The notes under the pieces are model-generated. The model did no database searches and was not told where the DNA came from. It saw only the letters and a program-made list of their open reading frames with translations. Below, piece after piece: positions 21,220 through 38,596 of a DNA stretch of 64,000 bases. The DNA lies in assembly GCA_964482725.1 (NCBI GenBank), contig CAYZYT010000003.1, positions 49,252-113,251 of the forward strand, in the 5' to 3' direction. The DNA is from an uncultured bacterium. GTDB lineage: Bacteria; Omnitrophota; Omnitrophia; Omnitrophales; Aquincolibacteriaceae. Each line of letters starts with the position of its first letter. The stretch's first letter is position 1. A program made the position numbers and the translations under genes.

Positions 21220-22731
21220 ATGAATTTTCCAGAAGACCTTCGCAATCAGATCAAGACGCACATTGCCGAGCGTTGCGGCCTTTATTTTCGCGATCACGAC
21301 CTCCGAAACCTTGAAGCGGGTGTGAGCCAGAGGATGAAAGCTTGCGGCTTCGATTCTGTCCATTCCTATTATCTCCATCTGACGACCTCCGCAGAAAAAG
21401 AAGCGGAGTTTCGCGAACTTCTCAATCTCCTTACGATCAATCACACCTATTTTTTCCGCAATGAGCCGCAGTTCCTGGCCTTTAAAGACAAAGTGCTCCC
21501 CGAGCTTATCGAGTTGCGGATGCGGCAGGTGATCCAATATAAAACCGAACAAAAACCGAAGCTCCGGATCTGGAGCGCAGGCTGCTCCACGGGCGAAGAA
21601 CCGTATACGATTGCCATGATCCTGCGTGAAGCGATCCCGCACCCTGAGGATTGGGATATCGAGATCCTGGCGACAGACGCGTCATCGGAAGCTATGGAAA
21701 AAGCCAAGCGGGGGATCTATAACGAGAATTCCATGCGGCTGGTGGAAGAGTCTTACCGGAGCAAATATTTTATCAAGTCTGTTTTTGCGAGGTCCCATGA
21801 GGAATGGAAGATCTCTGACGAGATCAAGAGAATGGTCCGATTTGGTTTTCTGAATCTTGTGGGCGATCCCTATCCTCCGGAGCTTGATGTTATTTTTTGT
21901 CGCAACGTGACCATTTATTTCGAGAATAAAACTACCATCAAAATTATGGAAGATTTTGCCGCGACCCTGACGGATCCCGGCTATCTTTTTCTGGGGTACT
22001 CCGAGAGTTTGCAGTTCCTTACAGATAAATTCCGCATGGCGAGCTGGCAGGATGGTATCTACTACCGAAAGGCGACCGAAAAAGACGAAGAGGCGGCGCC
22101 CGTAGCCTGGGGGCCGGAGGAACAGGAAGTGGAAGCCTATGTCGAGTCGATGCCACTTCCGGCGCTTGTCGCGATCACCGAAAACAAGCAACCCGTGGTT
22201 CTCTCCTCCGAAGAGTTTGAAGCTGTGCGCCAGCAGATCATCCGTTTTATTTATCTCAAGGAATATTCTAAAGCCATGGATTTGATCGAAAAGGTCTCTG
22301 TAGAGGGCGAAAAAATAGCCGATATACATTATCTGGCAGCGGATATCTATGCCAACCGGAACCAGCATCAAGATGCGAAGGCAAGGCTCCGGAAAGCCTT
22401 GGCGGTTGATTCTCTCTTTGCGCCGGCTTATTATCTTTTAGGCTGCATTTATCTGGATGAGAGTAAAAACGATCAGGCCAAAGAGAGCCTCTTGAAAGCG
22501 CTCTATATCGACAAAGATTTTATCATGGCGCGTTTTTATATGGCGCATCTGTTCCGGAGCGAGGGACGGACGAGTGAAGCGATCCGGGAGTACCGGAACA
22601 CGCTGGCCGCCCTTTCCAAAGGGGTGCCCAGTCCGAGAAGTCAAATGATCTTGCAAAGCAGCGGGTTCAGCCCCGCGACCCTAAAAAGTGTTTGTTGCGA
22701 TAATCTCGAACGTCTGAAGATGGAGTCCTGA
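21220..22731 (+). CDS. cheR: Chemotaxis protein methyltransferase CheR with C-terminal TPR repeats
   Basis: It carries the CheR SAM-binding motifs (LRIWSAGCSTGEEPYTIAMIL ... ILATDASSEAMEKAKRGIY ... DVIFCRNVTIYF), followed by TPR-like repeats of about 150 aa (AADIYANRNQHQDAKARLRKALAVD...). Confidence 0.9.
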   Translation: MNFPEDLRNQIKTHIAERCGLYFRDHDLRNLEAGVSQRMKACGFDSVHSYYLHLTTSAEKEAEFRELLNLLTINHTYFFRNEPQFLAFKDKVLPELIELRMRQVIQYKTEQKPKLRIWSAGCSTGEEPYTIAMILREAIPHPEDWDIEILATDASSEAMEKAKRGIYNENSMRLVEESYRSKYFIKSVFARSHEEWKISDEIKRMVRFGFLNLVGDPYPPELDVIFCRNVTIYFENKTTIKIMEDFAATLTDPGYLFLGYSESLQFLTDKFRMASWQDGIYYRKATEKDEEAAPVAWGPEEQEVEAYVESMPLPALVAITENKQPVVLSSEEFEAVRQQIIRFIYLKEYSKAMDLIEKVSVEGEKIADIHYLAADIYANRNQHQDAKARLRKALAVDSLFAPAYYLLGCIYLDESKNDQAKESLLKALYIDKDFIMARFYMAHLFRSEGRTSEAIREYRNTLAALSKGVPSPRSQMILQSSGFSPATLKSVCCDNLERLKMES

Positions 22732-23195
22732 TGAAGACCCTTATTTTTTCGATCGGCGAAAAAGATTACGGGGCGGACATTGCCCAGGTCCGGGAAGTCA
22801 TCCGGATGAGAAAAGTGACACGTGTCCCGGAAGCGCCTTCTTTTGTCGAAGGGGTGATCAGTCTTCGTGGCCGCGTCATTCCGCTCATCAATCTTCGGAA
22901 AAAGCTCGGCATGAAGTCTGAAGCGGTGCCGTCCAATCGCATTGTGGTGACCACGATCCAGAACCACTGGGCGGGAATCTTGGTGGACCTGGTCAAGGAT
23001 GTTGTGACGCTTCAATCAGAAGATATTGTCAAGCCGGACGAAGTACTTCAAAGCGTGACCTATCTTCTCGGGGTTGCCAAGTGGGAGGGCCGGGTGGTTC
23101 TCCTGGTGGACCTCACAGGGTTTCTGCGCGGAGAAGAATCCGCGGGGCTCCAAATGGTCCAGGAACGCGTTGAGATCAAAAAAAAGGAATCCTAA
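22731..23195 (+). CDS. cheW: CheW-like coupling protein
   Basis: 154 aa with a CheW fold (FSIGEKDYGADIAQVREVIRMRKVTRVPEAPSFVEGVISLRGRVIPLINLR). Its start overlaps the cheR stop (TGATG). Confidence 0.85.
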   Translation: MKTLIFSIGEKDYGADIAQVREVIRMRKVTRVPEAPSFVEGVISLRGRVIPLINLRKKLGMKSEAVPSNRIVVTTIQNHWAGILVDLVKDVVTLQSEDIVKPDEVLQSVTYLLGVAKWEGRVVLLVDLTGFLRGEESAGLQMVQERVEIKKKES

Positions 23196-23719
23196 TGACC
23201 GGGGATCAAGACAAAATTTATATCGATTCTGAGGGCGATGAATTTTCTGAGGAGATAAGTCATAAAAAGCTTCTTCGTGTGTTGGTTTTTTCTCTCGGGA
23301 AAGAAAATTATTGCGTGGATGTCCGTCAGGCCAAAGAGGTCATGAAAATGCCGGAAACGACCCGGGTTCCGAACGTTCCTGCCTTTGTGCTTGGCGTGGC
23401 AAACCTCCGCGGCGAGATCATCAGCATTCTTGATATGCATTATTTCTTCGGACTAGAACCGCAGGGAAAGTCCCAGGATGTTCGCGTCATCGTCACCGAT
23501 CTGAGCGGCGAGGCGGTCGGGCTTCGGGTGGACCGGGTGAACGATACGATCGGGATCAATGAAGACGAGATCCAGGTGCCTCTGGCAACGCTCCGAGGGA
23601 ATCTTGCGGCTTATACTAAGGGGCAGATAGCCCAAGGTGGAGAGATACTGATCTTTCTGGATCTCGACAAGGTTTTGCGCTGCGATGAGATGCAACGCTT
23701 GAGAAAAGGGGAAGGATAG
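23195..23719 (+). CDS. cheW: CheW-like coupling protein (second copy)
   Basis: 174 aa (FSLGKENYCVDVRQAKEVMKMPETTRVPNVPAFVLGVANLRGEIISILDM). Confidence 0.85.
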   Translation: MTGDQDKIYIDSEGDEFSEEISHKKLLRVLVFSLGKENYCVDVRQAKEVMKMPETTRVPNVPAFVLGVANLRGEIISILDMHYFFGLEPQGKSQDVRVIVTDLSGEAVGLRVDRVNDTIGINEDEIQVPLATLRGNLAAYTKGQIAQGGEILIFLDLDKVLRCDEMQRLRKGEG

Positions 23720-23731
23720 CGAATCGGTTCT

Positions 23732-23862
23732 GTCATTCCCGCGCCACCGCCTGCAAAGCGGCGGGGTCCCGCCCGACGGCGGGAAAAGCGGGAATCCAGA
23801 TCGGGATAAACTTCAGAGGGGATTCAGAGATTGGATTCCCGATAAAAACATTCGGGAATGAC
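23732..23862. repeat. MITE-like nested palindrome element, copy E1 of the GTCATYC...GRATGAC family
   Basis: Its termini are GTCATTCCCGCG ... CGGGAATGAC, with internal hairpins (ccgcctgcaaagcggcgg, tcccgcccgacggcggga, cccgataaaaacattcggg). It is a longer relative of the copy at 51574-51637. Confidence 0.5.
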
Positions 23863-23929
23863 AAGCAGCACGTCAATTGAATTTTAAATCAACTTGGATG
23901 AGTCTTTAAAATAAAAAGGGAGAAACACA

Positions 23930-25807
23930 ATGGCAAACTTATTGCGGAAGAGTCTTAAAGTCCGGGTGTTCGTGACATTCCTCGCGGTGGCGATCGTCGC
24001 GGTGTCTTTGCTGGGCGTGGTCGCGTATTTTTCAGGCCGGCGAATACTGCAGAAACAAATTCTTGATAGCTATAAGAACATTTCAGACTCAAGGGAAGGA
24101 GAGATCGTCATGTCCCTTGACGAGGCTAAGGCCGAATTTGCGCTTTTGGCCGGGGATTATCATATTCGGGAGCTCACGGAAAAGATTGTTAAAAACGATT
24201 TGGAAGCGGCGCGATCGCTCCAGGAACTTGTCGCCTATGCCAGGGCGCTTCTCGCGACAGGGAAGAACAGCTACGAATATTTCATTGTGGATATGCGGGG
24301 TAAGATCCTCGCCTCGACCGATGAGGCGCATATCGGAATCGACCGGGCGAAAGATGCGTATTTTATCAACGGACAAAAGCAGCTTTATATCAAAGATATC
24401 GGCAAATCCGAAATCACCGGCCAAGTCGGGTATGTGGTGGCGGGTCCGCTTCACTCGGTGGGCTCCGGGGAACTTTTGGGGGTGTTCTGCATTCGCCGAA
24501 ATCTTGAGCAAATGAACGCCATTATTTCAAATCACGAGGGCATGGGAGAAACCGGGGATATCTATATTGTTAATAAGGATGGATATTTGTTCACGAATTC
24601 CGCGTTTGAGGCAGCAGAGGCTCTCAAGAAAAGGATCGAGACTGAGCCCGTCCAGCTCTGGCAGTCGCAGAGAAAAGAATTAACGGGCCTCTACCGGGGA
24701 TTTGCAGGACAAATGGTGCTGGGCTCTTCGCATGGAGCGGATCTCTTAAAGGCCACGAACGACCTGGGATGGCTCTTGATCGCCAAGATCGACGCGCAGG
24801 AGGCTTTCGCACCAGTCCAGAAATTGGGTTTCACGATCCTCATGATCGGCTGCATCATCAGTATTCTGGTGGCACTCATCGCTTATCGTATTGCCAGCGG
24901 CATTGTCAACCCCATTACCGCGATCGCTCAGATCGCCCAAAGGGTGGGAGAAGGCGATCTGACTCATAATGTCGCGGAGACGACCGCTCAGGATGAGATC
25001 GGAAATCTGACAGCCGGTTTCAGGGCCATGATCACCGGACTCCGTAATATTTTGATGAAAGTCCAGGAAGCCACGGGGCAGATCACTGCTTCCGGTACCG
25101 AGATCCTTGCAGCGTCCCAGCAACAGGCCTCGGCGGCGCGGGAGCAATCTTCCGCGGTTGCGGAAACATCGTCAGCGGCGAAGGAGCTCTCCACAACCTC
25201 GGAGTCCGTGGGCGAAAGCATCAAGAAGGTCGCGCAAGTTGCGTCCCACGCCATGGCCGGAATGGCGAAGATCAAGGAATCGATCGATAAAACGAACGGG
25301 ATGCTGAACTCTCTTGGGGAGAAATCCCAAAAGATCGGGAAGATCACCGATCTTATCGATGACGTGGCCGACCAAACGAATCTTTTAGCTGTGAATGCTT
25401 CGATCGAAGCCGCGCGTGCCGGAGAACAGGGCCGAGGGTTTACGGTCGTGGCTGATGAGATCCGAAAACTTGCGGATTCGACCGCAAAATCCACCAAAGA
25501 TATCACGGGGCTGATCGAACTGATCCAGCACGAGATGTCGAACGCGATCATGTCGATGGAGCAAAGCATTCAGAGCGTGGATGAAGAGGCGCGGCTCGCG
25601 CAGCAGACCACGGAAAAGACCAAAGAGATCGCGATGAGCACGCACCAGCAGATTTCGGGCGCCAAACAGATCGCGGAAGCGATGATGAATATCGACGAGA
25701 CCATGAAACAGGTGGCCGCCGGGGCGCAGCAATCCCAGGTCGCCGTCAAACAGCTTACGGCCATGGCCGGGGAATTGAATCACCTGGCGTCGAAGTTCAA
25801 GCTGTAA
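23930..25807 (+). CDS. Methyl-accepting chemotaxis protein with a large periplasmic (double-Cache-like) sensor, HAMP and MCP signalling domain
   Basis: The layout is TM1, a periplasmic region of about 280 aa, TM2, HAMP ([23 protein letters not shown]), then an MCP signalling domain ([31 protein letters not shown]). Confidence 0.9.
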
Positions 25808-25867
25808 AGAAGCAAGAGGTAAAGAAATAAGAAGCAAAGAAACAAAGAAGCTGGCGCCATGTTGTTT

Positions 25868-25893
25868 TCTCTTGGGGACAAGAGGGTTTTTTT
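25868..25893 (+). terminator. Rho-independent terminator between the two MCP genes
   Basis: A CTCTTG-GGGA-CAAGAG hairpin followed by a T7 run. Confidence 0.55.
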
Positions 25894-25968
25894 GCGTCTT
25901 GGCTTCTTGCCTCTTGAATTTATTTGCGATTTTTATCAAATTGAAGCCAAAAGCGTTGGGGAAAAACC

Positions 25969-27477
25969 GTGAAGAAGAGTTTGGGGATCAGGGGAAAATT
26001 CATGATAGCGTTGCTGGGGATCTTGTTCCTCGGCGGCGCCTTGATGATGGCTTGGCTTTATTATTCTTCGCACGAGAATGTGAAGCGCCAAGCGATCCAG
26101 GGGGCGACGGTCCTGTCGGAGTCGATCCATGAAGCCGTCTATGGATTTATGCGGACCGGTCAGCAGAGCGATCTTGAGGCTTATCTTGAAAAAGGGAGCA
26201 AGATTCAATCGGTCGATGAGATCCGGGTGATACGAACCGATGTTCTGGAAAAAGAGCTGAGTGCAAAAAAAGATGGTTACGTGAAAGATGCTCTTGACCA
26301 GCAGGCGCTGAGTTCTGGTCAGATCCAACGGAAAATAGTGATCGCCGGGCGCGGGGAAGCCACCCGGATCGTTTCGCCGGTGATCGCGGAAAAATCATGC
26401 GTTGCCTGTCATGCGAGTGCCCGGGAAGGCGGGGTGATGGCCCTTTTGAGGACGACGGTCGTGTTCCAGTCGAGCCTGGATGCGATGAGGAGGGATCTGC
26501 TTAGGGCCGGTTTTATGCAGACCCTGATCCTGGTGATCGTGATCGGGGCAATTTTTATGCTGATTAGCAGGCTGATGGTGAATCCCTTGAATTCTCTGGC
26601 GGCGGTCGTCGATCTTGTTTCCAATGCCGACCTGACGCAGGAAGTGAAGGTCGGATCCCAGGATGAGATTGGCAGGCTCGCCGTAAGATTCAACAATATG
26701 ACGGCAGGGTTAAAGAATATTATAAAAAAAGTTCAGGAAGCTACGGGCCACATCACGACGGCGAGCCGTGAGATCCTTCTGGCGTCGCAGAAGCAGGCTT
26801 CAACCGCCCGAGAGCAGTCGTCCGCTGTGGCGGAAACGACGACCGCGGCCCAGCAACTGACCTCGACCTCCGTGCAGGTCGGGGAGAACAGCCGGAAGGT
26901 CGCCCAGGTGGCGGGTCATGCCCTGGAAGGGATGGCCAAGATCAAAAAAGCTATTTCCAAGACCCATGCAATGCTGGCGGAACTGGGCGAAAAATCTCAA
27001 AGGATCGGGACGATCACGGAACTGATCGATGATGTGGCGGATAAGACCAACCTGTTGGCGATAAATGCCTCGATTGAAGCGGCGCGTGCAGGAGAGCAAG
27101 GGCGCGGGTTTACGGTGGTCGCCTGTGAGATCCGCAAACTCGCGGATTCGACCGCCGCCTCAACCCAGGATATTACGGCGCTGATCGAGCTCATCCAACA
27201 TGAGATGTCCGATGCCATTGTCTCGATGGAAGAAAGCGTTCAGGGCGTGGACGAAGAGATGCGTCTTGCCCATCAGACCACGGAGAAGACCAAAGAGATT
27301 GAGACGAGCACGCACCAGCAGATCGCGGGCGTTCGGCAGATATCAGAGGCGATGATGAGCATCGATGGTGCGATGAAGCAGATCGCGACCGGTTCTCAGC
27401 AGTCGCAGGTCTCGGTCAAGCGGCTCGACGAGCTGGCCGGAGAATTGAAACAACTGGCCTCGAAGTTCAAGTTGTAA
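25969..27477 (+). CDS. Methyl-accepting chemotaxis protein with a small periplasmic sensor carrying a CXXCH c-type heme-binding motif
   Basis: The layout is TM1, a periplasmic domain of about 140 aa containing EKSCVACHAS (nt 26398-26412), TM2, HAMP, then an MCP signalling domain. The signalling domain is near-identical to that of the upstream MCP. Confidence 0.85.
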   Translation: MKKSLGIRGKFMIALLGILFLGGALMMAWLYYSSHENVKRQAIQGATVLSESIHEAVYGFMRTGQQSDLEAYLEKGSKIQSVDEIRVIRTDVLEKELSAKKDGYVKDALDQQALSSGQIQRKIVIAGRGEATRIVSPVIAEKSCVACHASAREGGVMALLRTTVVFQSSLDAMRRDLLRAGFMQTLILVIVIGAIFMLISRLMVNPLNSLAAVVDLVSNADLTQEVKVGSQDEIGRLAVRFNNMTAGLKNIIKKVQEATGHITTASREILLASQKQASTAREQSSAVAETTTAAQQLTSTSVQVGENSRKVAQVAGHALEGMAKIKKAISKTHAMLAELGEKSQRIGTITELIDDVADKTNLLAINASIEAARAGEQGRGFTVVACEIRKLADSTAASTQDITALIELIQHEMSDAIVSMEESVQGVDEEMRLAHQTTEKTKEIETSTHQQIAGVRQISEAMMSIDGAMKQIATGSQQSQVSVKRLDELAGELKQLASKFKL

Positions 27478-27650
27478 GCAGTTCGCGGACCTTGTGAGTG
27501 GACTCAAGGGATTGATGGGGATGTTGATCCCATAGGTAGCGGCAACGGTCATGAAGCCCGTATCGGTAACGGCAAAGGTGACGAGACCGTAACTGGAAGA
27601 CGAAACGGGCATCGTTACCGTAACCGAACAATGTAATTCGGGGGTTAAAA

Positions 27651-29789
27651 GTGGCTTTCGATAAATCAAAATTCATCGACCAGTTCAAAACCGAGACGCG
27701 GGAGCGCATCCAGACGCTCAGTCTTGGCTTGCTGAAGCTTGAGAAAAATCCCTCGGACCGTGAACTTTTAAATTCCATGATGCGGGAGGCCCACAGCATT
27801 AAGGGCGGGGCCGGCATGATGGGGTACAAACGGATCGCGGACATCACCCATAAAATGGAAGACGGTCTTCAGCGAGCTTTGAACGGTCAAATCACCCTTA
27901 CAAAAACTTGTTTCGAAATGCTTTTTAAGTGCCTGGATGCCGTCGAGCCGCTTCTTCAGGATAAAGTGACCTGGAACGATCGCGGGATCAACCGAGACTT
28001 CACGGAAGATCTCTGCGTTTTGGCTGAAAAGATTTTTTCAGGAAATTTCAAGGGAGAAATCCCTCCGACGGTGGAAGCCGCGGTGGCATGTGCGGTGCCT
28101 GAAGCTCCGTTGGCGTCTGAACCCGAGGCGCCCCTGCCGCCGGCTTCGGAACCTGCGGCACCCGTGGAGGACAGTGTTCGGGTGGATATCGAAAAACTGA
28201 ACCGTCTGATTAATCTTTCCGGGGAGCTGCTCATTTCCAAAATTCGTCTCGAAGAACTTTCCAAAAACCTTTTGGAGAAAGCGGAAGCTCAGGGAGAAGC
28301 GTACGGGGTTTTCAGCGGAGTGGTGAAGGATCTGACCGCGGTGACGGACCGAATTGATCTCCTGACTGAGAACATGCAGGATGAAATGATGAAGGTGCGG
28401 ATGTTGCCGGTGGCTTATCTCTTCAATACGTTCCCCAGGGCGATGAGGGATCTTGCCCAGTCAAAAGGCAAGGGAATCGATCTTGTGATCGAGGGACAGG
28501 AGACCCATCTGGATAAAGCGATCCTAGATGAGATGAAAGTTCCTCTCATGCATCTTTTAAGGAATTCGGTGGATCATGGGATCGAATCTCCTGAGGAGAG
28601 GATAAGACAGAACAAGCCGGCTGTTGGGAAGATCTGTCTTTCTGCCACCCAAGAGGGTTCTCAGGTGGTCATTGCGGTAACGGATGATGGCCGCGGGATC
28701 GATGTGGCCAAGGTCAAGGAGATCGCGGTCGCGAAGGGGCTTGTTTCGCGAGAAAATATTCAGTCCATGGTGGATGAACAGGTCTTCCAGTTGCTTTTTG
28801 CCCCCGGGTTCAGCACGAGTGAAGAAGTGACCGAGATCTCGGGGCGCGGGGTCGGGCTTGATGTGGTCCGGGAAACGGTGATCCGGCTGAAGGGCATGGT
28901 GGAGGTCAGCTCCGATCCTTCTTTAGGGACGAGCTTTATCATCCGTTTGCCGCTGACACTTGCGATCACCAAAAGTCTTCTCGTGATGGCAGGAAGCGAT
29001 ACGTACGCCATCCCGGTCGATTCGGTGATCGAAACGGTCCGCATCGATCTGGACAATCTGAAGACTGTCGAGACCAAAGATGTGATCACCGTCCGCGGGC
29101 ACATTTTGCCGGTCGTGAAGTTGCATGATATTTTCGGGCTTCCCGCGAAAGGGATCCTGGAAAAGAAGTTTTTCCCCGTCCTGATCGTTCAGTCCGTTGA
29201 AAAAAGGGTCGGCCTCCTGGTGGATGAGCTTATCGGGCGCCAGGAGATCATCTCCAAAAGCATGGGGGATCCCTTGAAGCATGTGAAGCACATTTCGGGT
29301 GCGACGATCCTGGGAAGCGGGAAAGTGGTGATGATCCTGGATATCCCGTCGATCATCCATTCGGCGGAGGGCGGGGTGGTGCGGCCGTCGGAGGCAAAGC
29401 CCAAGGGGGCCCCCGGCAAAAAGAAAAAAACGATCTTGCTTGCCGAAGATACGCTCACGACTGCCATGCTCGAGAAAAACATCCTGGAGTCGGTGGGCTA
29501 TTCGGTCGTTATTGCGCGCGACGGCCAGGAAGCGCTCGACAAGGCTTCCCAGGAGAAATTCGATCTTGTGATCTCCGACGTTTTGATGCCGCGCATGGAC
29601 GGGTTTGAGCTGGTGACGCGCCTTCGAAGAGAAAAAAATTATAAAGAAATTCCGATCATCATCGTGACCACGCGTGAAAGCGATGAAGATAAGCGCAAAG
29701 GTATGGAAGCCGGAGCGAATGCCTATCTTCTGAAAAGCGATTTTACTTCCGAAGGTCTTCTGGAGACGATCGAGCGACTGCTCGGGTAA
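27651..29789 (+). CDS. cheA: CheA histidine kinase fused to a C-terminal CheY-like receiver (CheA-REC hybrid)
   Basis: The domain series is Hpt (REAHSIKGGAGMMGY), dimerisation, HATPase (GRGVGLDVV), CheW-like, then REC (ILLAEDTL...DLVISDVLMPRMDGFEL...LLKSDF). A GTG start has a GGGGG RBS-like motif upstream. Confidence 0.95.
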   Translation: MAFDKSKFIDQFKTETRERIQTLSLGLLKLEKNPSDRELLNSMMREAHSIKGGAGMMGYKRIADITHKMEDGLQRALNGQITLTKTCFEMLFKCLDAVEPLLQDKVTWNDRGINRDFTEDLCVLAEKIFSGNFKGEIPPTVEAAVACAVPEAPLASEPEAPLPPASEPAAPVEDSVRVDIEKLNRLINLSGELLISKIRLEELSKNLLEKAEAQGEAYGVFSGVVKDLTAVTDRIDLLTENMQDEMMKVRMLPVAYLFNTFPRAMRDLAQSKGKGIDLVIEGQETHLDKAILDEMKVPLMHLLRNSVDHGIESPEERIRQNKPAVGKICLSATQEGSQVVIAVTDDGRGIDVAKVKEIAVAKGLVSRENIQSMVDEQVFQLLFAPGFSTSEEVTEISGRGVGLDVVRETVIRLKGMVEVSSDPSLGTSFIIRLPLTLAITKSLLVMAGSDTYAIPVDSVIETVRIDLDNLKTVETKDVITVRGHILPVVKLHDIFGLPAKGILEKKFFPVLIVQSVEKRVGLLVDELIGRQEIISKSMGDPLKHVKHISGATILGSGKVVMILDIPSIIHSAEGGVVRPSEAKPKGAPGKKKKTILLAEDTLTTAMLEKNILESVGYSVVIARDGQEALDKASQEKFDLVISDVLMPRMDGFELVTRLRREKNYKEIPIIIVTTRESDEDKRKGMEAGANAYLLKSDFTSEGLLETIERLLG

Positions 29790-29790
29790 A

Positions 29791-29890
29791 ACAAATCCTA
29801 AATCTGAAATCCAAGCTCTATGCATAAAATCCGAAATACGAATATCGAAATTCGAAATAATTCATTAATTTCAAAAATCCAAACAAGATA
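29791..29890. repeat. Left arm of the inverted repeat flanking the four-helix-bundle ORF (AAATCCTAAAT / AAATCCGAAATACGAATATCGAAATTCGAAA words)
   Basis: It matches the reverse complement of 30250-30360 (for example AATCCGAATATCGAAACTCGAAA) and shares words with the repeats at 16541-16650 and 39731-39828. Confidence 0.5.
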
Positions 29891-29895
29891 AACCG

Positions 29896-30243
29896 ATGGC
29901 TGGAAAATACGATTTAGAAGAAAGCACGGAGAAATTCGCTCGGGATGTGATCCGGTTTTGTAAGGTCTTGCCTAAGAATGCCATCAATTTTGAACTTATG
30001 AGCCAAGTGGTGCGGTCGGCGGGATCCGTAGGTGCTAACTACATAGAGGCAAATGAAGCGCTTAGAAAAAAAGATTTTCTTCACCGCATTAAAATCTGTA
30101 GGAAAGAAGCGAAAGAGACCAGATATTGGTTGCGGCTTATCGGATCAGATGATGTCGCTATCGAAAAAGAGGCAAGCTGTTTGGGTAAGGAAGCTACTGA
30201 GCTGATGAACATCTTCGGAGCAATCCTCAGAAAAGCTTCATAG
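29896..30243 (+). CDS. Four-helix-bundle protein (23S rRNA intervening-sequence protein family)
   Basis: The 115-aa product MAGKYDLEESTEKFARDVIRFCKVLPKNAINFELMSQVVRSAGSVGANYIEANEALRKKDFLHRIKICRKEAKETRYWLRLI matches the conserved pattern of this family as I remember it. The ORF lies in the loop of a long inverted repeat. Confidence 0.8.
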   Translation: MAGKYDLEESTEKFARDVIRFCKVLPKNAINFELMSQVVRSAGSVGANYIEANEALRKKDFLHRIKICRKEAKETRYWLRLIGSDDVAIEKEASCLGKEATELMNIFGAILRKAS

Positions 30244-30249
30244 CTGGGC

Positions 30250-30360
30250 GTTTAAGCATTGGAAAATTCGAATTTGTTTCGAGTTTCGATATTCGGATTT
30301 AGGGTTTAGCGTTTAGAATTTAGGGTTTATTTTTGTTTCGATGTTCGGATTTTGATATTT
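30250..30360. repeat. Right arm of the inverted repeat flanking the four-helix-bundle ORF (TTTCGATATTCGGATTTAGGGTTTAG words)
   Basis: It is the reverse-complement partner of 29791-29890 and contains three TTTAGGGTTTA-like words. Confidence 0.5.
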
Positions 30361-30378
30361 GCATTTAAAGGGGGATCC

Positions 30379-31392
30379 ATGCCAAAAACCATCCGGGTTC
30401 TGATCGTGGACGATTCGACGCTGGCCCGTCAGGCTCTGAGCGCCCTTCTTAGTACGGATCCCGAGATCGAAGTGATCGGAGAGGCTCGTAACGGGAGAGA
30501 GGGTTATGAGAAGACCCTGGCTTTAAGGCCCGACGTGATCACTATGGATATTACGATGCCGGTCATGGATGGGGTTCAGGCCACGGAACTTATCATGGAG
30601 GAAGTCCCCACGCCGATCGTGCTCGTTAGCACCCGGGATGTCCAGGTGATCGTCAAGGCGCTCGCGTTCGGGGCGATGGATTTTGTGGCGAGCACCGGGG
30701 ATCTTGAAGAGATGAGGGCAGAGCTGATCGACAAGGTGAGGATCGCTTCACGAGTGAGGGCGATCCGGCGTATGCATACCCGTCCAGTCCTTCAAAGAAC
30801 GATTACTCGCCGGCCGGCCGCATCCACGGTCGTGGCTCTCGGGATATCAACGGGAGGCCCCCAGGCGCTTCAAATCCTGCTCTCCATGTTGCCGGCTAAA
30901 TTCCCTGGGAGCATTCTTGTGGTCCAGCATATTTCTTCCGGTTTTATTCAAGGGCTCGTGGAATGGTTGAGTGTCACCTCTCCACTCGATATCCGTGTCG
31001 CGAAGGCCGGGGATGCATTGAAGATCGGAACGGTCTTTTTCGCGCCGGATGGTGTTCATATGACTGTAGATAAAGAGGAAAAGATCGCTCTCAAGGAAGA
31101 TGTCTCCAAAAAGATGCTCCACGTCCCTTCGATCGATGTGATGATGCGATCCGTGGCGGAAGTTTATCAAGAAAGAGCCCTGGGGGTCATCATGACCGGG
31201 ATGGGCCACGATGGTGTGGAGGGGATCTCTTCGATCAAGTCTGCGGGAGGTTATACGATCGCGCAGGATGAAAAAACGTCCGCGATCTATGGGATGAACA
31301 AGCTTGCGGTAGATCAAGGTACGATCGAGCGTGTGTTGGCGCTTGAGCAGATCGCCGCCGAATTGATTCGCGTCGCCGGCGGCACGTACTAA
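30379..31392 (+). CDS. cheB: Chemotaxis response regulator protein-glutamate methylesterase CheB
   Basis: It has an N-terminal REC domain (RVLIVDDS...VITMDITMP) and a C-terminal methylesterase with the catalytic triad context GISTGGPQAL, VVQHISSGF and TGMGHDG. An AAAGGGGG RBS precedes the ATG at 30379. Confidence 0.9.
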   Translation: MPKTIRVLIVDDSTLARQALSALLSTDPEIEVIGEARNGREGYEKTLALRPDVITMDITMPVMDGVQATELIMEEVPTPIVLVSTRDVQVIVKALAFGAMDFVASTGDLEEMRAELIDKVRIASRVRAIRRMHTRPVLQRTITRRPAASTVVALGISTGGPQALQILLSMLPAKFPGSILVVQHISSGFIQGLVEWLSVTSPLDIRVAKAGDALKIGTVFFAPDGVHMTVDKEEKIALKEDVSKKMLHVPSIDVMMRSVAEVYQERALGVIMTGMGHDGVEGISSIKSAGGYTIAQDEKTSAIYGMNKLAVDQGTIERVLALEQIAAELIRVAGGTY

Positions 31393-31420
31393 CTCCCCGA
31401 GAAAAAGTTTTTTAAAGCTT

Positions 31421-31509
31421 CGTCATCCTGAGCACCGCGAAGGATCCCGCTTTGAGATTCTTCGGCCTGCTGCTTCTTGCTTCCGCAAGAAGCAGGTCTC
31501 AGAATGACG
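31421..31509. repeat. MITE-like nested palindrome element, copy E2 of the GTCATYC...GRATGAC family
   Basis: It reads cgtcatcctgagc ... gaaggatcccgctttgagattcttc ... ctgcttcttgcttccgcaagaagcag ... ctcagaatgacg, and is homologous along its length to 39829-39936. Confidence 0.55.
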
Positions 31510-31556
31510 TTTTTTGGGGTGCAGGATAAAACCATTTTTTTCATATAGGAAAATCC

Positions 31557-32750
31557 ATGAAAAAGAGAATTCTTGTGGTGGATGATAGCTCGCTGGTGCG
31601 CGAGATGTACAAGGCTCAGTTGGAAGAAGCCGGCTATGAGGTCTGGACCTCAGCGGATGGGATCGAAGCAATTAATGCGGCGTTCACTCAATCTCCCGAC
31701 CTCGTTTTGTTGGATGTCCATATGCCCAAGATCAATGGGTATCAAGTCTGCCGGCTTCTCAAGGATCGTTCTGAAACCAAAGATATCCCGATCGTCATTA
31801 TGACGGCTCGGGATGCCGGCGGGGTGGTCGAAGATCCCCAGAAATGGAGTTTTCAGACCGGCGCAGACGGATTTTATGGCAAAGACGAAGGCGCGGCCCT
31901 GCTGCCCTCCGTAGCCTTGTACCTTCAAAAAAATAGGCCCCTTGCGAAATCTCCCTTGGCCGGTCAGGCCAAAGCCATGAGTGAGACCGAGATCATGCTC
32001 GCGCTTTCCGAGCTTTTGGACCGCCAGCTTTATCTGGATATCACGCGGCTCAAGGAATTGAATGAAATGAAGAATGTGTTTGTTTCGAACGTGGCCCACG
32101 AGTTCCGAACACCGATCGCGGCCATGCAAGGTTATCTCGAGAACCTCCGGGATGGCATTTATGGTCCGGTGACGTCGGAACAGAAAGAAACCATGGCGGC
32201 GATGCTCAAGACGATCAGGCGCGTCTTGCGTTTAACACGGGACATGCTGGATATTTCAAAGATCGAAGCGGGAAGGCTCGAGCTGGATCACCAGGATGTT
32301 GACCTCGCGAAGGTCGTCAGGGAAGCGGCCAAGACTTTTGAAATCGAGGCTTCCAAAAAACGGATCAAGCTTGTTCTTCAGATCCCGGGCAATCCCGTTC
32401 ATTTCTGGGGGGACGAAGACCGGATACCTCAAGTGTTCGTGAATCTCATCAGCAATGCCATTAAATACACCCCCGAAGGCCAGACCGTAACGGTTCGGGT
32501 TCATGAAGAGCCGCAGGACGGTGCGATCCGTGTTGAGGTGGAAGATACCGGCAAGGGAATTCCTGTAGATCAGAGAGAAAATATCTTTGATAAATTCACC
32601 CGGATCAAGACTGAGAAAGAGGAAGGCACAGGCCTCGGGCTCTCCATCGCGAAGGACCTCGTCATGCTGCACGGAGGGAATATCTGGGTCGAGTCCGTTT
32701 CCCCCACAGGTTCCCGCTTCGTGGTCATTTTGCCCCAGAAGAAACCCTAG
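31557..32750 (+). CDS. Hybrid response regulator/histidine kinase (N-terminal REC, then HisKA and HATPase)
   Basis: The REC domain reads RILVVDDSSLVREM...LVLLDVHMPKINGYQVC, HisKA reads NVAHEFRTPIAAMQGY, and HATPase reads DEDRIPQVFVNLISNAIKYT ... DTGKGIP ... GTGLGLSIAK. Confidence 0.85.
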   Translation: MKKRILVVDDSSLVREMYKAQLEEAGYEVWTSADGIEAINAAFTQSPDLVLLDVHMPKINGYQVCRLLKDRSETKDIPIVIMTARDAGGVVEDPQKWSFQTGADGFYGKDEGAALLPSVALYLQKNRPLAKSPLAGQAKAMSETEIMLALSELLDRQLYLDITRLKELNEMKNVFVSNVAHEFRTPIAAMQGYLENLRDGIYGPVTSEQKETMAAMLKTIRRVLRLTRDMLDISKIEAGRLELDHQDVDLAKVVREAAKTFEIEASKKRIKLVLQIPGNPVHFWGDEDRIPQVFVNLISNAIKYTPEGQTVTVRVHEEPQDGAIRVEVEDTGKGIPVDQRENIFDKFTRIKTEKEEGTGLGLSIAKDLVMLHGGNIWVESVSPTGSRFVVILPQKKP

Positions 32751-32895
32751 TTCCCGCTTCGCGTCGCTTCCGAAAAATTCAGCCGACCAGCTTTCAAGGC
32801 AGGGACAAGGGGTTTAGTCCGTGGGGGGGTATGTCGATAATGAGTTATCGACATAATTCAGGTTTATGAACTATCATTAGGGAGAATCATGCTAA

Positions 32896-33285
32896 GTGGC
32901 GGGGTGTTCCGTGGCTAAAAAAATTCTGCTGGTCGATGACAGCGCGTTGGTGTGCGCCATGATCAAGACGCAGTTGGAAGAGGCCGGTTATGAGGTCTTG
33001 ATCGCGAAAGATGGGCAGGAGGGTTTGGACCTCGCACGTAAGGAAGTGCCCGATTTTATCTTGCTGGATCTGATGCTTCCAAAACTCGATGGCTATAAAG
33101 TCTGCCGGATGCTCAAATTCGACAAAGTTTTCGAGCATATTCCCGTTATTATTTTTTCGGCTCGGGAGAGTGATGCGGATAAGAAACTCGCGGAGCAGTC
33201 CGGGGCCAACGCGTATATGGTCAAACCGTTCGATCCGGAGTTGTTCCATAAGACGATCCAGAAGTTGACCCGGAACTCAGCCTAG
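32896..33285 (+). CDS. Single-domain CheY-like response regulator (paralog 1 of 4)
   Basis: It has the acidic pocket LLVDDS, phosphoacceptor Asp in FILLDLMLP, and Lys in MVKPFD. It is closest to paralog 4. Confidence 0.85.
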   Translation: MAGCSVAKKILLVDDSALVCAMIKTQLEEAGYEVLIAKDGQEGLDLARKEVPDFILLDLMLPKLDGYKVCRMLKFDKVFEHIPVIIFSARESDADKKLAEQSGANAYMVKPFDPELFHKTIQKLTRNSA

Positions 33286-33313
33286 ATCATTCAGGGATGC
33301 GAGAGTTGCTTCT

Positions 33314-33724
33314 ATGAAAAAAAAGATTCTTTTGGTGGAAGATGAATCCCAGATACGGACGATCATTAGCGCGCGGTTGGCGGCCATGGGTTTTGAGGTG
33401 CTGATCGCGAAAGATGGTCTCGAGGGGCTGCATCTCGTTCGCAAGGAATCTCCGGACGTCGTTTTGTTGGATCTGATGCTCCCCGGAATGGACGGCTACA
33501 AACTATGCCGGATGATCAAATTCGATGTGGCTCTTGAACATATCCCGGTCGTCATTTGTTCGGCCAGGGCGAGTGATGAGGACAAGAAACGTGCAGAACA
33601 GTCCGGCGCTGACGCTTATCTGGTGAAGCCGTTCGAGATCAAATTGTTTGTGGAGACCATCCAGAAGCTGCTAGGGGTCTCACCTTCCAACCAACCTGAC
33701 GGGTTAGAAAAACCAGACTCGTGA
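33314..33724 (+). CDS. Single-domain CheY-like response regulator (paralog 2 of 4)
   Basis: It has the REC motifs LLVEDES, VVLLDLMLPGMDGYKLC and LVKPFE, plus a short C-terminal tail. Confidence 0.85.
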   Translation: MKKKILLVEDESQIRTIISARLAAMGFEVLIAKDGLEGLHLVRKESPDVVLLDLMLPGMDGYKLCRMIKFDVALEHIPVVICSARASDEDKKRAEQSGADAYLVKPFEIKLFVETIQKLLGVSPSNQPDGLEKPDS

Positions 33725-33764
33725 AAAGTTATTGGATAGAGTCAAGGGCGCGTGAGGGGCTTTT

Positions 33765-34133
33765 ATGAAAAAAAAGGTCCTTTTTGTGGAGGATGAATCC
33801 CAGATACGGGAGATCATTCTCGCGCGGTTGACCGCCATGGATTTTGAGGTGGTGGTCGCCAAAGACGGTCTCGAGGGTTTGCGGCTTGTTCGCACGAAAC
33901 GCCCCGACATGGTTTTACTGGACCTGATCCTTCCAAAACTGGACGGCTACAAGCTTTGCCGGATGATCAAGTTCGATACCACGCTTGAGCATATTCCGGT
34001 GATCATCTGCTCGGCCCTGGGAAGCGACGAGGACAAAAAACTCGCCGAACAAGCCGGCGCAGATGCGTACATGATCAAACCGTTCGATATGGATTTGTTT
34101 GTTTCCCTGGTCCAAAAGCTGACGGGTGTTTGA
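33765..34133 (+). CDS. Single-domain CheY-like response regulator (paralog 3 of 4)
   Basis: It has the REC motifs LFVEDES, MVLLDLILPKLDGYKLC and MIKPFD. It is closest to paralog 2. Confidence 0.85.
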   Translation: MKKKVLFVEDESQIREIILARLTAMDFEVVVAKDGLEGLRLVRTKRPDMVLLDLILPKLDGYKLCRMIKFDTTLEHIPVIICSALGSDEDKKLAEQAGADAYMIKPFDMDLFVSLVQKLTGV

Positions 34134-34213
34134 TCTTCAGGTTTGGATTTTGAGAACAGGCGTTTTTAGGGATTTTTATTTTGATAAAATGAAAGGTGAA
34201 TAGGGCGAATTTC

Positions 34214-34582
34214 ATGAAAAAAAGGATCCTTTTGGTGGATGATGAGCCCAATATTCTGACGATCGTGAGCGCGCGCCTGGTGGCCCTGGGTTTCGAAGTG
34301 CTGATCGCTCGAGACGGTCAGGAGGGCTTGGACCTTGCGCGCAAGGAATCTCCGGATGCGATCTTGTTGGATCTGATGCTTCCGAAGCTCGATGGTTATA
34401 AAGTCTGCCGGATGCTCAAATTCGACAAGGTTTATGGGCATATCCCGGTGATCATCTTTTCAGCCAAGGGGAGTGAGGAGTCTAAGAAGATGGCGGATCA
34501 GGCCGGTGCCGACGCGTATATGGTCAAGCCGTTCGATAACAAGTTGTTCGCGGAGACAATGAAGAGGCTGACAGGGGTTTGA
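34214..34582 (+). CDS. Single-domain CheY-like response regulator (paralog 4 of 4)
   Basis: It has the REC motifs LLVDDEP, AILLDLMLPKLDGYKVC and MVKPFD. An alternative GTG start lies at 34196. Confidence 0.85.
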   Translation: MKKRILLVDDEPNILTIVSARLVALGFEVLIARDGQEGLDLARKESPDAILLDLMLPKLDGYKVCRMLKFDKVYGHIPVIIFSAKGSEESKKMADQAGADAYMVKPFDNKLFAETMKRLTGV

Positions 34583-34599
34583 CCCTGATCGGAGAGACG

Positions 34600-36270
34600 A
34601 TGGTCCCAGACGTTAAATTATTAGAATTGTTGGTGAAGCAAGGGATGCTTCAGCAGGAGCAGGCGGATCAGGCCAAAAAAGAGGCGGGTCGCGTCGGCCA
34701 GTCTCTTGAATCCGTTCTTGTGAAGAGCGGTTTTATCACCGATGAAGAACTCGCCAGCACAAAAGCTACGATCCTCGGAGTGCCCTACATCGACATCAAT
34801 AATTATCGTCTCGACCGTGAACTGGTCAAGTTGATCCCCGAGAAGATCGCAAAGAAATACAGTCTTATCCCTCTTTTTTCGACCGGCGAAGCGCTTTCCA
34901 TCGGGATGATCGATCCTCAGAATATCGTGGCCATCGACCAGATCCGTAAACTCACCAACTTTGACGTGGTCGATCCCATCCTGGTCTCCTCAGGAGGTTT
35001 TCAGGCCGCGCTCAACACCTATTATCGTTCCTACGGTTCCATGGCGGATATCGTCAAGACCCTTGAAAAAGAGAAAACGCCCAGCATGGGCGAATCGCTT
35101 TTGGGCGAGATCACTGAGAAGACCCCTGTCAGCAAGCTCGTGGATTCTTTGCTGATGCAGGCCGTTCAATCTCGAGCCTCGGACATCCATATTGAACCTG
35201 AAGAAACGATCGTTTCGGTACGGCTTCGCGTGGACGGGCTTTTGCATCACATCACGACTTTTCCGCTTGTGATCCAAAACGCGGTCGTCTCGCGCGTGAA
35301 GATCCTGGGCGGCATGGATATCACCGAGAACCGGAAGCCCCAGGACGGCAAGATCCGCATGGAGCTCGAGGGGAAGGATCTGGATATCCGCGTTTCAACC
35401 TTCCCGACCCTTTTCGGCGAGAACGTGGTGCTGCGACTTTTGGACAAGCGTGCGATGCTTCCGAACCTTGTGGAATTAGGTTTTTCCAAAGAGAACCTCG
35501 ATAATTTTTCAAAACTGATCACGCGCTCGCATGGCATCATTCTGGTAACCGGCCCCACGGGAAGCGGGAAAACGACTACGCTTTACGCGGCGCTTTCCAA
35601 GATCAACAGCGAAGAGAAAAATATTGTGACGATCGAAGATCCCGTGGAATATGTGCTGCCCCGGGTTCGTCAGACCCAGGTCAATGTCAAAGCCGGCATC
35701 ACCTTTGCCAACGGGCTGCGAGGATTTTTGCGTCAAGATCCAGACATTATGATGGTCGGTGAGATCCGCGATAAGGAGACTGTGGAAATGGCGATCCAGT
35801 CGGCGCTGACCGGACATCTTGTGTTCTCAACCTTGCACACCAACGACGCCCCTTCCGCCTTGGCGCGCCTCATCGACATGGGGGCGGAACCGTTTCTGAT
35901 CTCTAGCTCGGTGATCGGGATCCTGGCGCAGAGGCTTGTTCGTGTGAATTGTCCCAAGTGTCGTGAGCCTTACACTCCCTCAGCTGCGGTGCTCCAAAGC
36001 GTCGGACTTCCGGAGGGAACCCAGGTGATGCGCGGGAAAGGCTGCACCAAATGCAACCAGAGCGGATTCACAGGTCGTATTGGGATCTTTGAGTTGATGT
36101 ACATTACCGATGAGATCAAATCCCTTGTGGATGCTCGTCGTTCGGCCGCGGATATCAAGAAGAAAGCCGTGGAGCAGGGGATGAAGACCTTGCGGCAGGA
36201 TGGTTTAGAAAAAGTCCTGAAAGGGATGACGCCTCTCGAAGAAGTCCTGAGAGTGACCGAGATCGAATAA
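34600..36270 (+). CDS. pilB: Type IV pilus assembly ATPase PilB/GspE family (MshE-like)
   Basis: It has an N-terminal T2SSE_N-like domain, Walker A GPTGSGKTTTLYA, Asp and His boxes, and a tetracysteine motif (CPKCREPY...CTKCNQSGF). The start was chosen at the ATG with a GGAGAG RBS, although the ORF opens at a TTG at 34579. Confidence 0.9.
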   Translation: MVPDVKLLELLVKQGMLQQEQADQAKKEAGRVGQSLESVLVKSGFITDEELASTKATILGVPYIDINNYRLDRELVKLIPEKIAKKYSLIPLFSTGEALSIGMIDPQNIVAIDQIRKLTNFDVVDPILVSSGGFQAALNTYYRSYGSMADIVKTLEKEKTPSMGESLLGEITEKTPVSKLVDSLLMQAVQSRASDIHIEPEETIVSVRLRVDGLLHHITTFPLVIQNAVVSRVKILGGMDITENRKPQDGKIRMELEGKDLDIRVSTFPTLFGENVVLRLLDKRAMLPNLVELGFSKENLDNFSKLITRSHGIILVTGPTGSGKTTTLYAALSKINSEEKNIVTIEDPVEYVLPRVRQTQVNVKAGITFANGLRGFLRQDPDIMMVGEIRDKETVEMAIQSALTGHLVFSTLHTNDAPSALARLIDMGAEPFLISSSVIGILAQRLVRVNCPKCREPYTPSAAVLQSVGLPEGTQVMRGKGCTKCNQSGFTGRIGIFELMYITDEIKSLVDARRSAADIKKKAVEQGMKTLRQDGLEKVLKGMTPLEEVLRVTEIE

Positions 36271-37487
36271 TGGAAGTCTCCTACCGCTATCAAGCCCGTG
36301 ATAAATTTGGACGGTCGGTGGCCGGACAGATGAGCGCCGTCTCCGATACGGAGGTCGCGACCAACCTTAAAACGAAGGGGCTGACTCCCTTTTCCATTGA
36401 GCCTATCGGGGAAAAGGCGTCCCGTGATTTTTTGGCGCCCTTTCGCCGCTTTAAACAAAGTGACGTCAATGCCTTTACGCGTGAGCTTTATACACTGACC
36501 CGGGCCGGATTGACCATCCTGGCATCTCTGGAGGTGATCGGGGAGCAAGACCGAAATCCCGTGCTCAAGAAGATCGTGGAAGGGCTCATCCAAAGTATCC
36601 GGGGCGGTGCGAGCATCTCCGATAGCTTGCAGCGTTATCCGAAGATCTTTAGCGTCCTTTACGTCAACATGATCCGGGCCGGTGAGGTTTCGGGTCGGCT
36701 GGAACAGATCCTGGAGCGCTTGATCTTCATTGGCGAGGCGGAAGAAAAACTTCAGATGCGCGTCAAGGCGGCGCTTCGTTATCCCGCCATTGTCTTTGGA
36801 GCTCTTGTGCTGGCGTTCCTATTTCTCACCAATTTTATCATCCCGCGTTTTGCCGTTCTTTTCACCCAAAGCGGTGTCGAGCTGCCGCTCCCGACCCGTC
36901 TCCTTTTAGGGATCCATGATGCTTTTACGAAGTATGGGTGGGTGACGGCGATCCTCGTGACCGCCCTGGTGATCTTTCTTATCCGATTTCTGAAGACTCC
37001 CACGGGGAAGCTTTGGCGTGATCGTCTCATGCTCAAGGTACCTGTTTTCGGGTCGTTAATTCTCAAATCTGAAATGTCGCGCTTTGCCCGCATCATGGCG
37101 CTTTTGATCCAGAGCGGGATCCCGGCACTTCGGGCTCTTGAGATCGCATCCGGAAGTTCTGATAATAAAGTGATCGTCGGAGCGATCGATAAGATTCGTG
37201 TGAGTGTTACGGAAGGGACCAGTATGACCGAGCCTATGAAGGCGAGCGGCATTTTTCCGCCTTCGGTGGTACGGATGGTCCATGTGGGGGAAGAGACCGG
37301 GAAAATTGATGAGTTGCTTTTAAAGGTCTCGGAATACTATGATATGCAGGTGGAATACACAGTTACCAATCTGATGGTTCTGATCGAACCGATGTTGATC
37401 GTGGTGCTCGGAGGGATGGTGTTTGTGCTGGCGCTCGGGATGTTCCTCCCGATGTGGAATATGATCAAGGTGTTTCAGCACGCATAG
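36270..37487 (+). CDS. pilC: Type IV pilus platform protein PilC/GspF family
   Basis: 405 aa with two GspF-type repeats and 3 TM helices. Its start overlaps the pilB stop (TAATG). Confidence 0.9.
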   Translation: MEVSYRYQARDKFGRSVAGQMSAVSDTEVATNLKTKGLTPFSIEPIGEKASRDFLAPFRRFKQSDVNAFTRELYTLTRAGLTILASLEVIGEQDRNPVLKKIVEGLIQSIRGGASISDSLQRYPKIFSVLYVNMIRAGEVSGRLEQILERLIFIGEAEEKLQMRVKAALRYPAIVFGALVLAFLFLTNFIIPRFAVLFTQSGVELPLPTRLLLGIHDAFTKYGWVTAILVTALVIFLIRFLKTPTGKLWRDRLMLKVPVFGSLILKSEMSRFARIMALLIQSGIPALRALEIASGSSDNKVIVGAIDKIRVSVTEGTSMTEPMKASGIFPPSVVRMVHVGEETGKIDELLLKVSEYYDMQVEYTVTNLMVLIEPMLIVVLGGMVFVLALGMFLPMWNMIKVFQHA

Positions 37488-37506
37488 GGTTCATGCCCTA
37501 TAGTGT

Positions 37507-37590
37507 TGGCACTGCTCAGGATTGGCTTATACGGGACCTAATGCAGGTGTTTACACCTATAATGCTACGAGCGGGACTTTCCAGTAATAA
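37507..37590 (+). pseudogene. Pilin gene 3' remnant (last ~25 codons plus the double stop TAATAA) with no start codon
   Basis: It translates in frame as ...LAYTGPNAGVYTYNATSGTFQ**, matching the C-termini of the two intact pilins at 37660-38034 and 38141-38515. An in-frame stop lies at 37501 and no start codon is present. Confidence 0.5.
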
Positions 37591-37659
37591 TTTTTCGATC
37601 GACTTAAGTAAAGTGTCCGGGAATGAATGATGTATAAAAATAACAAAAGGAGAAGTCCA

Positions 37660-38034
37660 ATGTTCAAACGCGAAAAAGGTTTTACGCTCATTGAATTGAT
37701 CATGGTGATCGTGCTGTTAGGTCTTTTGGCGGTTGTGGCGATCCCGCAATACACCAATCTCCAGACCCAGGCCAAGACGGCTGCCGAACAAGGGGTGGTC
37801 GGAGGTGTTCGTTCGGGCATCTACACCAAATATGCCGCCAATCTGGCGCAAAATGTCACTCCGGCCTACCCGGCAACACTAGGCGGAACTGGAAGTTGCA
37901 CAACGGGCAGTCCCTGTTTTGGCAATGTTCTTTCACAGGGGATCACGCAGGATTGGTCAGCCAGTGGTGCGACTTTCACGGGTCCCAATGGTGGTACTTA
38001 CACCTACAACGCTACGACCGGGACTTTCCAATAA
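37660..38034 (+). CDS. pilA: Type IVa major pilin (prepilin with N-terminal methylation motif)
   Basis: It has a 7-aa leader MFKREKG followed by FTLIELIMVIVLLGLLAVVAIPQY. An AAAAGGAGAA RBS precedes the ATG at 37660. Confidence 0.85.
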   Translation: MFKREKGFTLIELIMVIVLLGLLAVVAIPQYTNLQTQAKTAAEQGVVGGVRSGIYTKYAANLAQNVTPAYPATLGGTGSCTTGSPCFGNVLSQGITQDWSASGATFTGPNGGTYTYNATTGTFQ

Positions 38035-38140
38035 TAATCTTTGTGGCGGAGTGATGTGGGGTGTTTCTGCATTAATTGAGGCATAGGGCTGCAAAACGAA
38101 GCAGACCTGTTCCCGACAAATCAACAAAAGGAGAATGTAA

Positions 38141-38515: not shown

Positions 38516-38544
38516 TAAGATTTGTGCCCGATCACAGTTGTGGA

Positions 38545-38580: not shown

Positions 38581-38596
38581 ATCGAAAGGGTGATTC

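Follow-up and report, generated by a model that had tools for sequence, protein, structure and literature searches.

What does a chemoreceptor gene from an uncultured member of the Omnitrophota sense, and does the CXXCH motif in its putative periplasmic loop mark a sensor that carries heme c? The gene lies at positions 25969 to 27477 of a 64,000-nucleotide (nt) stretch of contig CAYZYT010000003.1 (GenBank assembly GCA_964482725.1, positions 49,252 to 113,251 of the forward strand), which is referred to in its full length as the window. We conclude, with a probability of about 0.85, that this open reading frame (ORF) encodes a methyl-accepting chemotaxis protein (MCP), hereafter the heme MCP, whose sensor belongs to the sCache_heme family of Geobacter GSU0582 and GSU0935 and of Tll0287, and is predicted to bind heme. 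The assignment draws on the homology of the domain, the conservation of its motif and of a methionine, the fold and the topology; heme attachment, stimulus and pathway output are what we infer. The protein is laid out as follows.

25969–27477, plus strand: MCP with a predicted heme-c Cache sensor, 502 amino acids (aa), from the ORF list and translation (Pfam MCPsignal E=6.7e-37, HAMP E=1.2e-11).
25996–26064, plus strand: first transmembrane helix (TM1), residues ~10-32 (Kyte-Doolittle, 19-residue windows above 1.6).
26065–26505, plus strand: predicted periplasmic sCache_heme sensor domain, residues ~33-179 (~147 aa).
26398–26412, plus strand: C144-V-A-C147-H148, predicted heme c attachment motif and proximal histidine (motif search and alignment).
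26506–26577, plus strand: second transmembrane helix (TM2), residues ~180-203 (hydropathic segment ~180-205, with HAMP directly after it).
26560–26715, plus strand: cytoplasmic HAMP domain, residues 198-249 (Pfam PF00672, E=1.2e-11).
26929–27426, plus strand: MCP signaling domain, residues 321-486 (Pfam PF00015).

Heme c attachment requires an extracytoplasmic domain, and the predicted topology provides one. Translation begins at a GTG codon, and the N-terminus (MKKSLGIRGK) places four basic residues (K2, K3, R8, and K10) before TM1, while an obligately cytoplasmic HAMP domain follows TM2; residues ~33-179 should therefore lie outside the cytoplasm. Both HAMP (PF00672) and the MCP domain (PF00015) score far over their cut-offs. 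The window also encodes a secretin, TolC-like outer-membrane factors (OEP) and AcrB pumps, from which we take the cell to be diderm, with a periplasm. An earlier reading made from the letters alone (the sequence-only reading) had put a sensor of about 140 aa between TM1 and TM2. Hydropathy and HAMP bear out that placement, with the length now revised to ~147 aa, and on re-checking the topology (TM1, TM2, basic N-terminus, HAMP) the domain is still predicted to be periplasmic rather than cytoplasmic. The same reading had located a single SCVACH, with Cys144, Cys147, and His148, at nt 26398-26412, which is exact: the protein has three cysteines in total and this one CXXCH.

Could the motif be an accident in an unrelated periplasmic loop? 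Short motifs can occur randomly, although nothing else favors chance here. Given how often cysteine (0.88%) and histidine (1.45%) occur in 48 window proteins, one would expect 1.6e-4 CXXCH motifs in the sensor and 0.02 across the 18,283 residues of those proteins, which already puts the motif beyond chance before its conservation is counted. A chance origin is then ruled out by the conservation data, as the motif is invariant among homologues and present in an orthologue at a related locus (L001, described below); we give this explanation a vanishingly small likelihood. No second CXXCH occurs in the window among six-frame stop-to-stop segments of at least 80 codons, the sole one being that of the heme MCP. 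The window holds two other HAMP-containing membrane sensors, a HAMP-SpoIIE/PP2C phosphatase (5053-6615, plus strand) and a HAMP-HD-GYP protein (13513-14910, plus strand), and the N-terminal sensor region of neither has a CXXCH.

The sensor can be placed in a known family by several routes. PF21563 (Methyl-accepting chemotaxis sensory transducer, class 40H, sensor) matches it with E=2.6e-5, and when the single sequence was compared with the sequences of the Protein Data Bank (PDB) by phmmer, 3B42 came first (E=0.0035) and 3B47 second (E=0.31), and in both the CXXCH lined up with that of the query. A profile of 48 sensor domains run against solved structures raised these to E=8.8e-12 and E=1.4e-13, respectively, and returned nothing else meaningful. 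The CXXCH of the sensor also matches, residue for residue, the heme-attachment sites in three solved heme-c proteins. HMMER, run exhaustively against 1.8 billion cluster representatives, recovered 115 proteins at E<=1e-3, 26 of them at E<=1e-10, the top homologue being 66% identical. A word-indexed search with the N-terminal 203 aa found one fragment only (P0001, on a 675-nt contig), which ends just after the first cysteine, and an exact-sequence look-up returned no record identical to the heme MCP.

CXXCH stands at the equivalent position in ~103 of the 115 homologues, and the loss of conservation that would have spoken against a heme site is thus excluded. Those that deviate comprise four fragments cut short, two repeat proteins with spurious matches (P0067 and P0098), five proteins with CX3CH and two cytochromes c; being fragments, spurious repeats or CX3CH variants, the homologues that lack CXXCH offer no argument against conservation, and the complete genuine homologues all have CXXCH or CX3CH. 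When 48 sensor domains are aligned with MAFFT, the sole invariant columns are C144, C147, and H148, with Gly64 and Pro137 almost invariant; in a second alignment, too, no columns other than these three are invariant. Published conservation of the motif across the sCache_heme family is 99% (PMC12889525). Among 75 full-length homologues, PF21563 is found in 45 and PF11845 in 20; 45 are MCPs, 11 carry the HATPase_c domain of histidine kinases and a few have GGDEF domains, a mixture that agrees with the modular distribution described for the sCache_heme family.

Two groups of exceptions are of interest in their own right. CX3CH replaces CXXCH at the same position in P0050, P0061, P0078, P0084, and P0104 (e.g., CLTKCH, CVRKCH, and CVSSCH), which on the alignment is a variant heme-attachment spacing inside the sensor family. 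P0101 and P0095 are cytochrome-c-like, one of them with 11 CXXCH motifs, and their matches are limited to query residues ~107-152 (P0101) and ~109-152 (P0095). Such partial matches fit the published idea that a fragment of a cytochrome c gave rise to the segment with the CXXCH helix (PMC12889525).

The predicted fold leads to the same family. An AlphaFold2 model of the sensor, built on the 48-sequence alignment, has a mean predicted local distance difference test score (pLDDT) of 95.5 and a predicted template modeling score (pTM) of 0.88. It runs from a long N-terminal helix through a second helix, a strand, two short helices and two strands to the CXXCH helix, followed by the last strand and a C-terminal helix that leads into TM2. 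The CXXCH helix comprises model residues 115-120, between strands 102-112 and 129-138, and C117, C120, and H121 of the model are C144, C147, and H148 of the protein. In the model, the topology is that of a single Cache domain with CXXCH on a short helix between beta3 and beta4, and the insertion of such a helix between these two strands is the defining feature of sCache_heme (Deshpande et al.; PMC12889525). The sequence-only reading had proposed a heme-c sensor in the periplasm that resembles those of Geobacter GSU0582 and GSU0935, with a structural comparison as a check. The modeled fold matches that of the Geobacter sensors, and together with the invariant CXXCH, the profile matches to 3B47 and 3B42, the presence of PF21563 in 45 of 75 homologues and a conserved distal methionine (see below), it upholds the proposal. 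The PAS-like label given to the domain was right as to a fold of the Geobacter type, but that fold is now classed as Cache, within sCache_heme (PMC12889525).

The same fold is shared with ligand-binding sCache domains such as those of WalK, CitA, and DcuS, and the domain might accordingly be pictured as a heme-free Cache for a small organic ligand, with the CXXCH binding a metal, forming a structural disulfide or working as a redox switch through its thiols. We consider this very improbable, since the whole of C-x-x-C-H, including the histidine, is invariant in ~100 homologues of divergent architectures, aligns onto the attachment sites of three solved heme-c proteins and belongs to a family in which the motif is conserved at the published level given above. 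The WalK, CitA, and DcuS domains (4YWZ, 2J80, and 3BY8), in contrast, are without the CXXCH helix or a cofactor, and their ligands are small or unknown.

If the sensor does carry heme c, its axial ligands can be predicted from its Geobacter relatives. In GSU0935 the heme is bonded to Cys140 and Cys143, with His144 as proximal and Met60 as distal ligand (PMC8396549). His110 of 3B42_A corresponds to GSU0935 His144, an offset of 34, so that Met26 of the chain is Met60, and this residue aligns to Met61 of the window protein.

26149–26151, plus strand: codon of Met61, the predicted distal (sixth) heme ligand (alignment with GSU0935 Met60).

The aligned stretches around it read G-F-M-R-T-G in the window protein and G-Y-M-M-K-G in 3B42. 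Of 26 close homologues, 24 have methionine in this column. In a wider set of 48 sequences it is there in 30, another 15 have a methionine five residues on, beyond the invariant glycine, and 44 of the 48 have one at either site. The alignment thus supports His/Met ligation with an exchangeable methionine.

From these elements a mechanism can be proposed. The loop between TM1 and TM2 would be exported, and a cytochrome c maturation system would attach heme to Cys144 and Cys147. His148 would be the proximal axial ligand, and the exchangeable distal one would be Met61, where the long N-terminal helix ends. A change at the heme iron would then displace or re-bind Met61, the trigger being either the ambient redox potential, which would oxidize or reduce the iron, or a diatomic gas, for example nitric oxide (NO), that binds to it. 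This switch would shift the N-terminal helices, of which TM1 and TM2 are continuations, and the signal would pass from TM2 through HAMP and the MCP hairpin to the CheA-REC kinase of the neighboring Che cluster.

The most likely stimulus, in our analysis, is either redox state or NO, acting through heme ligand exchange. The Geobacter domains are high-spin when oxidized and low-spin with methionine bound when reduced, with midpoints of -156 and -251 mV (PMC8396549), and the methionine kept in the heme MCP leans toward a redox switch of this kind. The receptor could instead be a sensor of NO or another diatomic gas rather than of redox potential, with NO binding to ferrous heme and the loss of the axial ligand as the signal. 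GSU0582 and GSU0935 also bind NO and carbon monoxide (CO) (PMC8396549), and a signaling-linked sCache_heme member, the Cache_heme-HAMP receptor of Pseudomonas azotoformans, has a slow NO off-rate like that of H-NOX and NosP, kinetics that resemble those of an NO sensor, and forms no stable O2 complex (preprint, PMC12889525). However, the P. azotoformans protein is reportedly without a distal ligand from the protein, whereas the heme MCP and its close relatives keep the methionine, and in Geobacter that residue binds tightly in the reduced state, which makes the switch redox-linked. Moreover, no genes of NO metabolism were seen in the window. On balance, gas sensing is a real possibility but one that we rate clearly below even odds.

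Several points weigh against the assignment of the heme MCP to sCache_heme and the function proposed for it. The sensor falls short of the curated Pfam cut-offs, scoring 24.9 bits against 27 for PF21563 and 19.4 against 24.1 for PF11845 (Tll0287-like), a near miss that we ascribe to the divergence of this sensor subfamily. The evidence is compatible with redox as well as with NO or another gas as the stimulus. Finally, ccm, resB, and ccsA were not found among essentially all large ORFs of the 64-kb window. One gene of the window is nominally tied to cytochrome c maturation, and only this one:

53125–53784, minus strand: DsbD_2-family membrane protein (PF13386, cytochrome c biogenesis protein transmembrane region; E=3.3e-18), between radical-SAM genes.

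This protein has no NCBIfam match and is not taken as a sign of maturation. Homologues of the multiheme proteins CbcL and ImcH are listed in Candidatus Omnitrophica (PMC6295460), so that the maturation of heme c may be considered plausible at the level of the phylum, on indirect evidence. A search of the literature on Omnitrophota for cytochrome c and chemotaxis together found nothing.

How does the heme MCP compare with characterized systems? Like GSU0582 (3B47) and GSU0935 (3B42), it combines TM1, a periplasmic sensor of ~130-150 aa with heme c (predicted here), TM2, HAMP and an MCP domain, with CXXCH at the same alignment position and a methionine that matches GSU0935 Met60. It differs from them in a pairwise identity of just ~17-20%, in missing the PF21563 cut-off by 2 bits, in a host that is Omnitrophota-like and not of the Desulfobacterota, and in a G-Q-Q motif of its own that is conserved after the methionine in its close subfamily. 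The cytoplasmic part aligns to Escherichia coli Tar without net length change (185-502 vs. 198-515), and its signaling domain is therefore probably of the 36-heptad (36H) type and not the 40H of PF21563. Tll0287 (5B82, PF11845/DUF3365) is a free-standing protein whose axial ligands are Cys and His, whereas the heme MCP is membrane-anchored and has a predicted distal methionine. The sCache_heme family itself was defined only recently (Deshpande et al., bioRxiv 2026; PMC12889525). The P. azotoformans receptor resembles the heme MCP in having a periplasmic heme-c Cache between two TM helices, followed by HAMP, and has been proposed as a gas (NO) sensor (PMC12889525; bioRxiv 10.64898/2026.05.25.727664); it has no MCP output and, as mentioned, reportedly no distal ligand from the protein, in contrast to the MCP output and conserved methionine here. 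Desulfovibrio vulgaris DcrA, as described where it is cited in PMC8396549, is likewise an MCP with a periplasmic c-type heme, was proposed to sense redox potential or oxygen and has an extra cytoplasmic PAS domain.

Heme-c sensors of the periplasm have been described since 2008, and the heme MCP extends this class to an Omnitrophota-like lineage. The 2026 survey of the family covered more than 5,000 to 20,000 sequences (PMC12889525). This subclade falls just under the curated Pfam thresholds, and automated annotation therefore probably leaves its sensor unassigned. As the domain, the MCP architecture and the likely mechanism were already established, no concept is changed by it. The heme MCP is, however, a concrete and easily expressed candidate for the question of redox vs. 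NO in Met-ligated sCache_heme receptors.

The genes around the heme MCP suggest where its signal may go.

21220–32750, plus strand: chemosensory cluster (Pfam; gene order conserved in L001).

The cluster runs in the order CheR-TPR, CheW, CheW, dCache MCP, heme MCP, CheA-CheW-REC hybrid, a small four-helix ORF, CheB and a REC-HisKA-HATPase hybrid histidine kinase (REC-HK). From TM2 to the C-terminus the heme MCP is 65.5% identical to the dCache MCP upstream of it (BLASTP, 182-502 vs. 304-625), and by sequence the two are tandem paralogues with unrelated sensors (dCache_1 vs. heme sCache).

To place the cluster among its relatives, species-representative genomes were scanned with a 10-sequence sensor alignment. 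Three related loci were recovered (L001 to L003), all in metagenome-assembled genomes (MAGs) of Candidatus Omnitrophica/Omnitrophota. L001, from the closest relative, is collinear with the window at ~15.5-32.7 kb and 46.7-51.4 kb, at 67-81% nucleotide and 63-87% amino acid identity, and the genes from CheR to REC-HK are 63-85% identical in amino acids. Its orthologue of the heme sensor retains CMACH and GFMRTGQQ. The first MCP in L001 (8345-9886) has 513 aa, and by tblastn it matches just the C-terminal part of the dCache MCP of the window (23930-25807). As judged from these alignments, this suggests the swapping of sensor modules on a conserved signaling scaffold. L002, from the same MAG as L001, has a sensor that is 54% identical, with CLVCH, on a protein of ~990 aa (~9922-12900), and L003, from another MAG, one that is 44% identical, with CMACH (~9925-11640). 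These paralogous sensors sit on longer non-MCP or different-length proteins, and one MAG has at least two such sensors.

Downstream of the chemosensory cluster lies a set of genes that raises the question of a filament as its output.

32896–46163, plus strand: adjacent, non-conserved pilus/type II secretion system (T2SS)-like block (Pfam and NCBIfam).

It comprises three single-domain CheY-like REC proteins, a PilB/GspE-like ATPase with MshEN, GspF/PilC, N-methyl (pseudo)pilins, a LamG protein, a PilM-like protein, a secretin and an ExeA-like ATPase (ExeA/PEP-CTERM-type). The sequence-only reading had the receptor feed a pilus-linked Che pathway, which would couple redox or gas sensing to pilus behavior. 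The adjacency holds in the window, but the block is missing from the syntenic L001, where the ~14-kb segment at window 32700-46750 has no counterpart (15830-15926) and the REC-HK gene is directly followed by MscS; coupling of heme sensing to a pilus is thus not a conserved property of the pathway. A conserved association between the che cluster and a type IV pilus (T4P) was not found in the one relative compared (L001). Between the two loci, the block is an insertion or deletion exactly between the REC-HK and MscS genes.

Output through the Che cluster may equally go elsewhere than to the neighboring machine, for example through the REC-HK hybrid to gene regulation, with the adjacency incidental. 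The genes from CheR to REC-HK are syntenic with L001, yet the REC trio and the pilus/T2SS-like genes are absent there. In addition, the ATPase, the platform protein and the secretin score under the NCBIfam equivalog cut-offs for both T4P and T2SS, which makes the pilus label itself uncertain. Pointing the other way, everything between CheR and the ExeA-like ATPase, these two included, shares one strand with short gaps between genes, and the three CheY-like REC genes stand immediately upstream of the PilB/GspE-like ATPase. Hybrid CheA-REC and CheR-TPR proteins, moreover, are typical of non-flagellar Che systems, which also counts against an output unrelated to the filament. We give such an output an even chance. 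The coupling of heme sensing to pilus behavior in this genome, a weak link drawn from adjacency, has a probability no better than even.

The close subfamily of the sensor has a conserved G-F/L-M-x-T-G-Q-Q and several invariant acidic and basic residues. A bolder proposal would be that this Omnitrophota-restricted subclade is a functionally distinct heme-c Cache sensor, with another midpoint potential or ligand, and that in this genome the three CheY-like proteins connect it to a PilB/secretin filament machine of recent acquisition. We think this unlikely; if true, a candidate-phylum bacterium would have its attachment or twitching directed by redox or NO.

The cluster also differs from its relative in a small ORF of 115 aa (29896-30243, plus strand), which belongs to the four-helix-bundle family of 23S rRNA-intervening sequence proteins (PF05635, E=2.6e-17). 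It occupies a gap of 560 nt between cheA and cheB; in L001 this gap measures 37 nt and the ORF is absent. A copy with 34% identity lies on a different contig of the MAG that contains L001 (L002 248-559).

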